Below the pieces are notes generated by a model that saw only the letters and a program-made list of their open reading frames with translations, made no database searches and was not told the DNA's origin. A DNA stretch of 64,000 nucleotides from Escherichia coli (lineage in GTDB: Bacteria > Pseudomonadota > Gammaproteobacteria > Enterobacterales > Enterobacteriaceae), in assembly GCF_030013595.1 (NCBI RefSeq), contig NZ_CP122768.1; one strand, written 5' to 3'. Below, one piece after another: positions 42,220 through 46,391 of this stretch (the first letter of the stretch is position 1; the number at the start of each line of letters is the position of its first letter). The position numbers and the translations under genes were made by a program.

Positions 42220-43017
42220 ATGTCAGCAGGACAAAGGAAGGAGCAAAAGTTGATACCCGTAGAGCGTCGCCAAATCATCCTTGAGATGGTAGCTGAAAAA
42301 GGCATTGTCAGTATTGCTGAACTAACGGACAGAATGAATGTGTCACATATGACCATTCGTCGGGATTTACAAAAACTGGAGCAGCAGGGAGCCGTTGTGC
42401 TGGTGTCCGGAGGCGTCCAGTCTCCGGGACGCGTGGCGCATGAACCTTCTCATCAGGTAAAAACTGCGCTGGCAATGACGCAAAAAGCGGCTATTGGCAA
42501 GCTGGCGGCAAGTCTTGTTCAGCCGGGAAGTTGTATCTATCTGGATGCGGGAACGACCACGCTAGCGATAGCACAGCATCTGATTCACATGGAGTCACTG
42601 ACTGTGGTCACAAACGATTTCGTTATTGCGGACTACTTGCTCGACAACAGTAATTGCACAATTATTCACACTGGCGGTGCAGTGTGTCGGGAAAACCGTT
42701 CCTGTGTCGGGGAAGCCGCTGCGACCATGCTGCGCAGCCTGATGATTGATCAGGCTTTTATTTCTGCATCGTCATGGAGTGTGCGGGGGATTTCTACGCC
42801 AGCGGAAGATAAAGTCACGGTGAAACGGGCGATTGCCAGTGCCAGCCGCCAGCGAGTTTTGGTCTGTGATGCGACGAAATATGGTCAGGTGGCGACATGG
42901 CTGGCGTTACCATTAAGCGAGTTTGATCAGATTATTACAGACGACGGTTTGCCGGAGAGTGCCAGTCGCGCGCTGGCGAAGCAGGATCTCTCTTTGCTGG
43001 TAGCGAAAAATGAATAA
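42220..43017 (+). CDS. ygbI: DeoR-family transcriptional regulator (true start may be TTG at 42250, which has a better SD)
   Basis: ORF with N-terminal HTH ERRQIILEMVAEKGIVSIAELTDRMNVSHMTIRRDL; divergent from ygbJ. Confidence 0.8.
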   Translation: MSAGQRKEQKLIPVERRQIILEMVAEKGIVSIAELTDRMNVSHMTIRRDLQKLEQQGAVVLVSGGVQSPGRVAHEPSHQVKTALAMTQKAAIGKLAASLVQPGSCIYLDAGTTTLAIAQHLIHMESLTVVTNDFVIADYLLDNSNCTIIHTGGAVCRENRSCVGEAAATMLRSLMIDQAFISASSWSVRGISTPAEDKVTVKRAIASASRQRVLVCDATKYGQVATWLALPLSEFDQIITDDGLPESASRALAKQDLSLLVAKNE

Positions 43018-43040
43018 TGGCCTGCAATAACACCGGGTTA

Positions 43041-43066
43041 CTCATGCTTCACAGAAGAAGCATGAG
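43041..43066. terminator. Bidirectional terminator between convergent ygbI and pphB
   Basis: ctcatgcttc-acagaa-gaagcatgag 10-bp stem, followed by ctttatttta. Confidence 0.6.
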
Positions 43067-43067
43067 A

Positions 43068-43724
43068 CTACTTTATTTTATAAAATGACAGCCGCCCGCT
43101 TTTCGGCGATCCGGTATCAATATAAATCTGGTTTGCGAACGTCTGAATGTTATCAAACATCATATGTCCAAATATAAAATAATCAGCGCCGTTTATTTGT
43201 TGTAACTCGCCATTAAGCGATTTCTGCACACGATCAACAGGCCAGAGTAGTTCTCTCTCCGCTATTTCTTTGCCAAAGAGATATTCACTCCCCGGATAAT
43301 CTGCATGCGCGATGACATATTTTATTATGTCGTTAGTGATTTCAATAATATGTGGAAGGTGATGAAATTTCAGCAACAGATCTATTGCTTCTTGTTGTTC
43401 CGTCTCATTTAATTCAAAGAACCAGTCGCCGCCGCTGGCAAGCCACATATTGCCATCGCCGGTCGCGAACGCATCCAACGCCATCGCTTCATGGTTGCCT
43501 TTAACCGATGTAAACCAGGGCTGGTTTAGCAGGCGCAGCACGTTAAGACTCTCCGGCCCACGATCAATATTATCGCCGACAGAAATAAGTAAGTCGGTTT
43601 CAGGGCAAAAAGAGAGTTGATGTAAGCGGGATTGTAATAATTGATAGTCACCATGAATATCACCAACGGCCCATATATGGCGATAGTGATGGGCATTAAT
43701 TTTTTGATAGCGTGTAGATGGCAT
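43068..43724 (-). CDS. pphB: Serine/threonine protein phosphatase 2 (PPP family)
   Basis: 218-aa ORF with GDIHGD and GNHE metallophosphatase motifs. Confidence 0.87.
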   Translation of the reverse strand: MPSTRYQKINAHHYRHIWAVGDIHGDYQLLQSRLHQLSFCPETDLLISVGDNIDRGPESLNVLRLLNQPWFTSVKGNHEAMALDAFATGDGNMWLASGGDWFFELNETEQQEAIDLLLKFHHLPHIIEITNDIIKYVIAHADYPGSEYLFGKEIAERELLWPVDRVQKSLNGELQQINGADYFIFGHMMFDNIQTFANQIYIDTGSPKSGRLSFYKIK

Positions 43725-43796
43725 GGTTTTACCCTGTAAAATAAGATTTCCTATTATACAGGGTGTTTTTATTTGATTCGTCAGTTGTCGTTAATA

Positions 43797-43823
43797 TTCC
43801 CGATAGCAAAAGACTATCGGGAA
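43797..43823 (-). terminator. Hairpin 7 nt downstream of mutS stop (ttcccgata...tatcgggaa)
   Basis: 9-bp stem read from sequence; weak U-tract, so could instead be a regulatory stem upstream of pphB. Confidence 0.35.
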
Positions 43824-43829
43824 TTGTTA

Positions 43830-46391
43830 TTACACCAGACTCTTCAAGCGATAAATCCACTCCAGCGCCTGACGCGGAGTCAGTGAATCCGGGTCGAGAT
43901 TTTCCAGTGCTTCGACCGCAGGCGAAGTTTCTTCTGGCACTGACAGCAAAGACATTTGCGTACCATCCACTTGCGTAGCGGCGGCGTTCGGCGAAATGCT
44001 TTCCAGCTCACGCAGTTTTTGCCGTGCGCGCTTAATAACCTCTTTTGGCACGCCGGCCAGAGCTGCAACCGCCAGGCCGTAGCTTTTGCTCGCTGCGCCA
44101 TCCTGCACGCTGTGCATAAAGGCAATGGTGTCGCCGTGCTCCAGTGCATCGAGATGCACGTTGGCGACGCCTTCCATTTTCTCCGGTAACTGGGTCAGCT
44201 CGAAATAGTGGGTAGCAAACAACGTCAACGCTTTAATCTTATTCGCCAGATTTTCCGCGCACGCCCACGCCAGCGACAGACCATCGTAAGTGGACGTTCC
44301 ACGCCCAATCTCATCCATCAGCACCAGACTGTACTCGGTGGCGTTATGTAAAATATTGGCGGTTTCGGTCATTTCCACCATAAAGGTTGAACGCCCGGAT
44401 GCCAGATCATCCGCTGCCCCTACGCGGGTAAAGATGCGATCGATAGGTCCAATCTTGACTTTTTGTGCCGGTACATAGCTGCCGATGTAGGCCATCAGCG
44501 CAATCAGTGCGGTCTGGCGCATATAGGTACTTTTACCGCCCATATTCGGACCGGTAATGATCAACATGCGACGCTGCGGCGACAGGTTCAGCGGGTTGGC
44601 GATAAACGGCTCATTCAGCACCTGTTCAACCACCGGATGGCGGCCTTCGGTGATGCGAATACCCGGTTTATCAATAAAGGTCGGGCAGGTGTAGTTCAGC
44701 GTATAGGCCCGTTCCGCCAGGTTCACCAGCACGTCGAGTTCCGCCAGCGCGCTCGCGCTCTGTTGCAACGCTTCCAGATGCGGCAACAGCAGGTCGAACA
44801 ACTCTTCATAAAGCTGTTTTTCCAGTGCCAGTGCTTTGCCTTTTGAAGTGAGAACTTTGTCTTCGTACTCTTTTAGCTCTGGAATAATGTAGCGCTCGGC
44901 GTTTTTCAGCGTCTGGCGACGCATGTAATTGATGGGTGCCAGATGGCTTTGTCCACGGCTGATCTGAATGTAATAACCATGAACCGCGTTAAAGCCGACT
45001 TTCAGGGTGTCCAGGCCAGTACGTTCACGCTCGCGGACTTCCAGACGCTCCAGATAATCGGTCGCGCCGTCAGCCAGCGCGCGCCACTCATCCAGCTCTT
45101 CGTTATAGCCCGATGCGATAACACCACCGTCGCGTACCAGCACTGGCGGTGTGTCGATGATTGCCCGCTCCAGCAGATCGCGCAGCTCGGCAAACTCGCC
45201 CATTTTTTCACGTAGCGCCTGTACCGGAGCGCTATCGACATTTTCTAACTGCGCACGCAGCTCCGGCAGTTGCTGGAAAGCGTGACGCATACGGGCCAGA
45301 TCGCGTGGGCGAGCAGTTCGTAAAGCCAGACGCGCCAGAATACGTTCCAGGTCGCCGACCTGACGCAGCACCGGCTGTAGCTCGGCGGTGAAATCCTGCA
45401 ATGCGCCAATAGTTTGCTGGCGCTCAAGCAACACGCGGGTATCGCGCACTGGCATATGCAGCCAGCGTTTCAGCATACGACTACCCATCGGCGTTACAGT
45501 GCAGTCGAGCACTGAAGCCAGCGTGTTTTCCGCACCGCCCGCCAGGTTCTGGGTAATTTCCAGGTTACGACGCGTCGCGGCATCCATAATGATGCTGTCC
45601 TGCTCACGTTCCATAGTGATAGAACGAATATGCGGCAGAGTCGTACGTTGGGTATCTTTCGCATACTGCAACAGACAACCGGCAGCACAAAGTCCGCGCG
45701 GCGCGTTCTCGACGCCAAAACCGACCAGATCGCGGGTGCCAAATTGCAGATTCAACTGCTGGCGCGCGGTGTCGATTTCAAACTCCCACAGCGGACGACG
45801 GCGCAGACCGCGACGACCTTCAATCAGCGACATCTCAGCAAAATCTTCTGCATATAGCAGTTCCGCCGGATTAGTGCGTTGCAGTTCTGCCGCCATCGTT
45901 TCCCGGTCAGCCGGTTCGCTCAGGCGAAAACGACCGGAACTGATATCCAGCGTCGCGTAGCCGAAACCTTTACTGTCCTGCCAGATAGCCGCCAGCAGAT
46001 TGTCCTGGCGCTCTTGTAACAGGGCTTCATCGCTGATGGTGCCTGGCGTAACGATACGCACAACTTTGCGCTCAACCGGACCTTTGCTGGTCGCCGGATC
46101 GCCAATTTGTTCGCAGATGGCAACGGACTCTCCCTGATTCACCAGTTTGGCGAGATAGTTTTCCACCGCATGGTAGGGGATCCCCGCCATCGGGATCGGC
46201 TCTCCCGCTGAAGCACCGCGTTTGGTCAGTGAAATATCCAGCAGCTGCGAGGCGCGTTTCGCGTCGTCATAAAACAGTTCGTAAAAGTCACCCATCCGAT
46301 AGAACAGCAGGATCTCGGGATGCTGGGCTTTCAGCTTGAGATACTGCTGCATCATTGGCGTATGGGCATCAAAATTTTCTATTGCACTCAT
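43830..46391 (-). CDS. mutS: DNA mismatch repair protein MutS
   Basis: 853-aa [43 protein letters not shown]..., Walker [10 protein letters not shown]. Confidence 0.98.

Follow-up and report, generated by a model that had tools for sequence, protein, structure and literature searches.

The mutS-pphB spacer of Escherichia coli: two conserved hairpins and a probable Rho-dependent end of the mutS transcript

The mutS-pphB Locus

The spacer described here lies in a stretch of 64,000 nucleotides from Escherichia coli (NCBI RefSeq assembly GCF_030013595.1, contig NZ_CP122768.1), referred to below as the window; positions are those of the window unless K-12 coordinates are named. It occupies 43725-43829, the 105-nt gap between two minus-strand genes read in the order mutS, pphB. 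The mutS ORF (43830-46391, minus strand) is a full-length match to the NCBIfam equivalog model TIGR01070 (mutS1), and the pphB ORF (43068-43724, minus strand), which encodes a PphB-type serine/threonine phosphatase, matches the equivalog model NF007425 over residues 1-218 of 218; the RefSeq annotation gives the same mutS/pphB pair in E. coli. The K-12 counterparts are found at 2857093-2859654 (mutS) and 2859760-2860416 (pphB), and the K-12 spacer differs from that of the window at 2 of 105 bases, one between the two hairpins listed below and the other in the loop of hairpin B. With mutS and pphB both encoded on the minus strand, transcription proceeds towards lower window coordinates, and the mRNA carries, in order, the mutS stop, hairpin A, UAUUAACGACAACUGACGAAUCAAAUAAAAAC, hairpin B, AAAACC and AUG. 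The features of the region are the following:

43830-43832, minus strand: mutS stop codon TAA, end of the ORF matching TIGR01070
43825-43829, minus strand: 5-nt linker from the mutS stop to hairpin A, varying freely among relatives (alignment, per-region divergence)
43796-43824, minus strand: hairpin A, mutS-proximal, with a 12-bp stem and a 5-nt loop (dG -17.6 kcal/mol, z -5.9)
43765-43795, minus strand: inter-hairpin segment, unstructured, A/C-rich and G-poor, containing TTAACG-17-TAAAAA and an A-run
43731-43764, minus strand: hairpin B, with an outer 8-bp stem, an inner 6-bp stem and a variable apical loop
43753-43758, minus strand: perfect TATAAT within hairpin B, the probable pphB -10, 28 nt before the ATG
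43732-43735, minus strand: AGGG, Shine-Dalgarno-like, in the 3' arm of hairpin B, the sole such sequence before the pphB start
43722-43724, minus strand: pphB start codon, the NF007425 match beginning at residue 1
43563-43822, minus strand: C-rich, G-poor zone covering spacer and the first ~160 nt of pphB (C/G 1.3-2.2)

A 43-codon ORF with a GTG start (43729-43860, minus strand) also runs out of frame across the end of mutS and the whole spacer, and is most likely spurious.

Sequence and Folding of the Two Hairpins

The original prediction, made from the sequence of the window, had placed two inverted repeats in the spacer, and both are present where it placed them, with 0 of 200 shuffled sequences folding as well as either in the gene-sense direction. 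Hairpin A starts 5 nt after the mutS stop and has the stem arms AUUCCCGAUAGU and GCUAUCGGGAAU. Hairpin B, which ends 6 nt before the pphB ATG, has the outer arms ACCCTGTA and TACAGGGT (its outer 8-bp stem, as a feature of the minus strand, being ACCCUGUA/UACAGGGU) in addition to the inner stem; its gene-sense fold reaches -17.2 kcal/mol (z -4.9), and its antisense fold is weaker (z -2.95), with an A.C mismatch within the inner stem. Folding of the whole 105-nt spacer gives z -7.5.

A search of Rfam 15 with positions 43000-44500 at permissive E-values returned no family, the best matches reaching 13-18 bits against gathering thresholds of 49-100 (E 0.9-2.8). Three further candidates were set aside: a longer helix for hairpin A (34 nt, extending into the coding end of mutS), which is absent from the E. 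albertii allele; a LexA box for the CTGT...ACAG of hairpin B, where the spacing is N22 and not N8; and a dispersed palindromic repeat (REP/BIME, ERIC and similar), as the 5,211 E. coli genomes counted have the spacer at a median of 1 place each.

Conservation of the Spacer

Of 5,426 complete E. coli genomes, 5,201 carry a single copy of the spacer and ~5,150 have it at an identity of at least 95%, with no annotated feature. Genome and metagenome scans provided 15 distinct alleles, including those of Escherichia whittamii, other Escherichia lineages, Pseudocitrobacter vendiensis and an E. albertii type (loci L015 and L135, confirmed as E. albertii), the last of which was found by megablast in none of the complete E. 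coli genomes. The metagenome scan, performed with a 17-mer from the 3' end of mutS, returned mostly unrelated environmental matches; counting loci fetched earlier, 39 stretches are mutS ends, and 36 sequences, the window included, were usable for the spacer comparison. Two records stand out by their labels: RKCM01000024.1, labelled as an Oscillospiraceae MAG, has a spacer identical to that of E. coli and matches K-12 over the 190 nt compared, and DXKH01000072.1, labelled as a Citrobacter MAG, shares 94% identity with the window over 2.8 kb, its spacer being of the E. coli type; both are probably cases of binning contamination or mislabelling.

The relatives compared reach ~40% divergence at four-fold-degenerate sites, 13-43% of these sites in mutS and pphB differing from the window. 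Over the 52 stem positions there are 0-5 changes relative to the window (binomial P from 7e-4 down to 1e-10), whereas the linker, both loops and the bulges change at a roughly neutral rate: in the more distant relatives, 2-4 of the 5 linker positions and 2-3 of the 6 loop and bulge positions of hairpin B are changed. The stem of hairpin A has 0-1 changes in 24 positions in all alleles except the E. albertii type, which has 3 of 24 (one pair is altered in both arms) and retains a paired helix; the outer stem of hairpin B shows no change at any of its 16 positions in any relative except, again, the E. albertii type (1 of 16, a C-to-T that gives a G.U pair). This C-to-T in the 3' arm of hairpin B is recurrent (L015/L135 and L111) and leaves a G.U pair in sense RNA where antisense RNA would have A.C. 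Paired cells amount to 99%, and several of the changes turn a wobble into a Watson-Crick pair; because the sequences are close, covariation lends thin support (both members are replaced in 1 of 26 pairs). The inter-hairpin segment is conserved in all alleles but L015/L135, where only the A-run beside hairpin B stays.

At the centre of hairpin A (43808-43812), the E. albertii sequence AGCAAAATGCT resembles AGCAAAAGACT, the reverse complement of the E. coli sequence AGTCTTTTGCT. Judging by these letters, it looks as if the loop had been flipped by a palindrome-mediated inversion that kept the arms.

The Post-Stop Hairpin of mutS in Other Genomic Contexts

Six distinct sequences are found behind mutS: the K-12 type, an island with a tetratricopeptide-repeat (TPR) gene (E. 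coli LSC52 and a Pseudocitrobacter MAG), Escherichia sp. E1V33, two Superficieibacter species and an Enterobacteriaceae MAG. In each of them a hairpin built on a CCCG...CGGG core begins 5-12 nt past the stop codon. Taken alone, these post-stop hairpins fold at -17.6 to -32.6 kcal/mol, and a T-A to A-T swap distinguishes the hairpins of the two Superficieibacter species. Most of them are without a good U-tract; the tails at the position of hairpin A include GGGUUUAUU in the E1V33 type (U-tract score 2.7) and AUUUCCUCCAUUUU in E. albertii. A hairpin before pphB is present in lineages in which pphB directly follows mutS, namely Escherichia, Pseudocitrobacter and Superficieibacter (in the latter with a different sequence), and absent in Salmonella, in which it does not. 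Hairpin A appears to belong to mutS, its role being suggested by its position and conservation, and hairpin B belongs to the pphB leader.

Some individual loci depart from the K-12 arrangement. In E. coli EH10-18-47 (L134, 2501-3400), IS1A replaces hairpin B and the entire pphB, hairpin A stays on mutS and ygbI is intact. In E. coli LSC52 (L002, 2009-3000; also L005 and L126), divergence from the K-12 type begins right at the mutS stop codon: another hairpin, ATGAGCCCCGATTAAACTTCGGGGCTCAT, follows mutS, then the TPR gene, with pphB 24 nt after it and no hairpin B, and then hydroxyarylic acid decarboxylase genes.

The T-Run and the Opposite Strand

The original prediction had joined one of the hairpins to a T-run. 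The run itself, GTTTTTATTTG, exists at 43765-43775, but to have it on the 3' side of hairpin B one must read the plus strand, which is antisense to mutS and pphB alike; the RNA of the two genes carries it as an A-run, CAAAUAAAAAC, upstream of hairpin B. The tails that follow the hairpins on the sense strand are UAUUAACG for hairpin A and AAAACC, then AUG, for hairpin B. A simple U-tract score, computed per hairpin and per strand, is 0.03 for hairpin B and 1.0-1.7 for hairpin A on the sense strand, and 2.3 for hairpin A and 4.7 for hairpin B on the antisense strand; two textbook terminators reach ~4.6. Given the low sense-strand values, neither hairpin is a canonical intrinsic terminator for mutS transcription. 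A consensus promoter/terminator scan of the spacer found no promoter or terminator on the sense strand, and gave on the plus strand a terminator-like call on hairpin A and a promoter-like match, at background frequency.

Several observations concern the opposite strand more widely. An extended -10-like motif, TGTAATAAT (TGtAATAAT), lies at 43633-43641 on the plus strand, antisense to pphB and ~125 nt upstream of the T-run of hairpin B; a short antisense RNA from this motif over the pphB start is possible in principle, and no supporting data for it were found. A search for a transcript end of ygbI, undertaken to test the antisense idea, found none defined. The K-12 Rho region at 2860217 on the minus strand (about window position 43267, plus strand) is antisense within pphB, ~250 nt past the ygbI stop, which suggests that ygbI transcription runs into pphB in antisense and is stopped there by Rho. 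A 10-bp hairpin at 43041-43066 (CTCATGCTTC-N6-GAAGCATGAG, -14.7 kcal/mol) lies between the ygbI and pphB stops, which converge and are 50 nt apart; it has weak U-rich tails on both strands and is probably, from its sequence and place, a shared ygbI/pphB terminator.

Published Transcript Data From K-12

All the experimental transcript data come from K-12, which is a different strain from that of the window. SMRT-Cappable-seq describes mutS transcripts with a TSS at 2857024 and an end at 2859753 (PMC6131387 supplementary data), a site catalogued there as "novelTTS". The TSS has 246 reads; 23 reads (from one of two growth conditions) end at 2859753, 10 pass through and 4 end within 50 bp, and the median extension of read-through past the site is 375 nt (PMC6131387). 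On the sequence, 2859753 coincides with 43731, where pairing in hairpin B ends; AAAACC comes next, and since A's at read ends are removed by the method, the actual end may lie anywhere in 2859753-2859757, up to 4 nt further. In the part of the catalogue available, the operon variants from the mutS TSS are b2733 (mutS alone) and b2733|b2734 (mutS-pphB), and no pphB-only unit is among the variants listed in that part (PMC6131387). No transcript end at hairpin A is reported in the published K-12 data.

Dependence on Rho is indicated by a bicyclomycin data set, in which a Rho-termination peak lies at 2859755 on the plus strand (score 4.54, p 2.7e-10; Adams et al., PMC7815308 supp. 2). The downstream/upstream reads at this peak are 39/71 in untreated cells and 172/69 with bicyclomycin (PMC7815308). 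This excess of downstream (172) over upstream reads (69) on treatment leaves room for a contribution to the Rho score, apart from mutS read-through, of a de-repressed pphB promoter or of relieved H-NS silencing. The curated Term-seq lists of the same study contain no 3' end within the spacer on either strand, possibly because of weak mutS expression.

The original prediction had proposed that the hairpins attenuate read-through from mutS into pphB, and had named Term-seq or RNA-seq coverage across the spacer as the check. The attenuation agrees with the K-12 end at hairpin B, where 23 reads stop and 10 go through; the intrinsic-terminator reasoning behind it does not hold, the T-run being antisense and the region sensitive to bicyclomycin. 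The functional guess was broadly right, for a different reason.

The pphB Leader

In 78-nt sliding windows from 43822 down to 43563, the C/G ratio is 1.3-2.2, and in this respect the RNA resembles a Rho-utilisation (rut) site in composition. The AGGG at 43732-43735 has an unpaired probability of 0.00 in the predicted fold of the read-through RNA. RNAs from either candidate pphB promoter would be without the 5' arm, and the outer stem of hairpin B could not form in them.

The first of these candidates is the TATAAT within hairpin B. A TATAAT located 28-34 nt before the ATG, often as TGnTATAAT, recurs at pphB homologues in unrelated contexts (loci L008, L010-L012 and L136, that is, E1V33, Superficieibacter, an Enterobacteriaceae MAG and Salmonella), a recurrence consistent with the TATAAT at 43753-43758 being probably the -10 of pphB itself. 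The second candidate was proposed from genomic SELEX, in which sigma-70 holoenzyme and H-NS bind the spacer, and consists of TTAACG (43789-43794)-17-TAAAAA (43766-43771), between the hairpins (PMC3946193). In a SELEX list pphB is a CRP target. The Cappable-seq and Kim 2012 tables and the available part of the SMRT-Cappable-seq operon table have no entry for a pphB-specific TSS near the site.

Outside Escherichia, the elements of the leader occur in other combinations. In Salmonella, where pphB is not directly behind mutS, the upstream A-run and the TATAAT are kept with no hairpin; in Superficieibacter, where pphB is directly behind mutS, a different hairpin surrounds the TATAAT and an analogous A-run precedes pphB; and in Klebsiella spallanzanii an A-run lies at a similar distance from the pphB start with no adjacent hairpin. 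The A-run without a hairpin in Salmonella and K. spallanzanii suggests that the T-run marks an old A-rich element lying upstream of the pphB promoter, rather than the tail of a terminator. The context of the pphB homologue in K. spallanzanii (L137) is unlike that of Escherichia, with hok/gef-family toxin genes on both sides (1034-1186 and 2236-2388).

A Probable Rho-Dependent Gene Boundary and Its Alternatives

The mutS-pphB spacer is an ordinary gene-boundary element, and is probably best understood as a structured mutS 3' UTR joined to the pphB leader, at which transcription is terminated by Rho and hairpin B protects the 3' end. It combines several properties expected of a Rho-dependent terminator, namely a stem-loop without a U-tract, a 3' end at the base of this stem-loop, read-through on inhibition of Rho and a rut-like composition. 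Transcription from the mutS promoter would pass the stop codon and hairpin A, which offers at best a weak terminator tail; Rho would load where the RNA is untranslated, rich in C and poor in G, in the spacer and the start of pphB, and terminate most transcripts within the spacer or shortly past it; and 3'-to-5' exonucleases would trim back to hairpin B, leaving the base of the stem as the stable mutS 3' end. A minority, in K-12 roughly a quarter of the transcripts reaching the site, continues as mutS-pphB RNA, in which the outer stem of hairpin B would bury the pphB ribosome-binding site; the poorly translated pphB would in turn leave the RNA open to further Rho termination inside the gene, and the median read-through in K-12 is shorter than pphB. 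Transcripts initiated from the TATAAT in hairpin B would be made without the 5' arm, with the ribosome-binding site left free. Measurements in K-12 establish where the transcript ends, that some of it reads through and that bicyclomycin acts on it, and the hairpins, their conservation and the base composition are seen in the sequences; the trimming, any consequence of burying the ribosome-binding site and a promoter of pphB itself are inferred.

Two other explanations also regard the hairpins as terminators, of the intrinsic kind. That one or both would terminate or attenuate mutS transcription in the sense direction agrees with their stability and position right after the mutS stop, with the transcript end and partial read-through at hairpin B, and with the better tails found at the position of hairpin A in other lineages (E1V33 type, E. 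albertii); of the marks of such a terminator, however, the spacer has for mutS the stem-loop and lacks both the sense U-tract (scores as above) and, in the K-12 data, independence of Rho, and no end is reported at hairpin A, so that this explanation is improbable. Hairpin B with the T-run could instead be an intrinsic terminator for the opposite strand, stopping ygbI read-through or transcription from an antisense promoter before mutS, or ending a ~125-nt cis-antisense RNA over the pphB start, and could as such coexist with Rho-dependent termination of mutS. This is the sole hairpin/strand pair with a canonical U-tract (GUUUUUAUUUG, 7 U in the first 8, score 4.7), hairpin A has a U-rich tail on the same strand that was flagged by the scan, the A-run beside hairpin B has not changed even in the E. 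albertii allele, whose remaining inter-hairpin segment has diverged, Superficieibacter has its analogous A-run and hairpin before pphB, and transcription antisense into pphB does exist (Rho region 2860217, minus strand, score 5.9; PMC7815308). Against these points, the K-12 Term-seq and SMRT-Cappable-seq tables have no minus-strand 3' end near 28597xx, the antisense fold is the weaker one, the recurrent C-to-T keeps pairing in the sense RNA only, and the A-run occurs with no adjacent hairpin in Salmonella and K. spallanzanii; an antisense terminator is accordingly unlikely.

The palindrome might also act as DNA, the pphB -10 TATAAT flanked by an inverted repeat serving as an operator for a dimeric regulator or as a site of H-NS nucleation. 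The SELEX binding of sigma-70 holoenzyme and H-NS in the spacer (PMC3946193), the listing of pphB as a CRP target, the TATAAT conserved across unrelated pphB upstream regions, the excess of pphB-side over mutS-side reads in bicyclomycin and the conserved arms with a variable centre, which fit an operator as well, speak for such a site. Its half-site spacing of 26 bp centre to centre is nevertheless unusual for a dimer, there is no -35 at 16-18 bp and no consensus match on that strand in the scan, the tables searched contain no pphB-specific TSS, Salmonella has the TATAAT without the palindrome, the G.U-type substitutions tolerated are better suited to RNA pairing than to a protein site, and the RNA end mapped at the stem base is left unexplained, which together make a DNA site quite unlikely. 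Lastly, as alternative islands start immediately after the mutS stop and the loop of hairpin A looks inverted between E. coli and E. albertii, the palindromes could be functionless, neutral leftovers of a recombination junction at the end of mutS, where the variable mutS-rpoS region starts; this is hardly credible for stems far more conserved than four-fold-degenerate sites while the loops drift, with changes on both sides that keep pairing and a transcript end that maps at hairpin B.

An extension of the Rho-dependent reading, offered as a tentative idea with a small chance of being right, would make hairpin B a dual-use insulator where a core gene meets an acquired one: it would cap the mutS mRNA, silence pphB in the read-through RNA and be a terminator in antisense. 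As the 5' arm overlaps the pphB -10, only mutS read-through RNA would carry the complete stem; this stem would silence pphB translation and thereby invite Rho termination, transcripts from the pphB promoter would escape, and on the other strand the palindrome and U-run would stop antisense transcription before mutS. If true, a horizontally acquired gene located directly behind an essential repair gene would be kept translationally uncoupled from it.

The coordinates of the site were known from two genome-wide data sets; its structure, strand logic, Rho dependence and conservation are not described in the SMRT-Cappable-seq catalogue. Rho-dependent termination with protection by hairpin B gives a structural and mechanistic reading to a transcript end that has so far been only a coordinate in genome-wide tables, with little import beyond annotation, and would explain why pphB appears both alone and co-transcribed with mutS. 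The locus is moreover a clean example of how a T-run read on the wrong strand suggests an intrinsic terminator where the data point to Rho.

Comparison With Known Systems

In the general pattern shown for Rho-dependent transcripts, the 3' end lies exactly behind a stable stem-loop that lacks a U-tract, and rut sites come directly after it (Dar and Sorek, PMC6061677). The mutS spacer is like these 3'-end-protecting stem-loops in that hairpin B is stable, is followed by no U's and has the RNA end at its base, and in that mutS read-through is bicyclomycin-sensitive with C-rich, G-poor sequence just downstream; trimming by PNPase or RNase II is a predicted step at the mutS locus. Unlike those stem-loops, the spacer has two hairpins in tandem with the reported end at the distal one, and this distal hairpin also contains the pphB ribosome-binding site and a -10-like TATAAT.

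With intrinsic terminators, bidirectional ones included, the spacer shares a G+C-containing stem-loop at a short distance from the stop codon and, at hairpin B in antisense, a canonical U-tract; it differs in having no U-tract on the mutS/pphB strand, in its sensitivity to Rho and in that no antisense end is observed in the K-12 tables. As in leaders with hairpins that sequester the ribosome-binding site, the sole Shine-Dalgarno-like sequence of pphB is predicted to be fully paired in the read-through RNA; unlike them, hairpin B has no known opening trigger (ligand, temperature or sRNA), and its effect on translation is a predicted one. The read-through transcripts that end a median of 375 nt into pphB recall translation-coupled Rho polarity. 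Finally, the locus is like the read-through operon variants that arise at leaky sites (PMC6131387): that catalogue, which gives coordinates only, lists this very site, with mutS-only and mutS-pphB variants.
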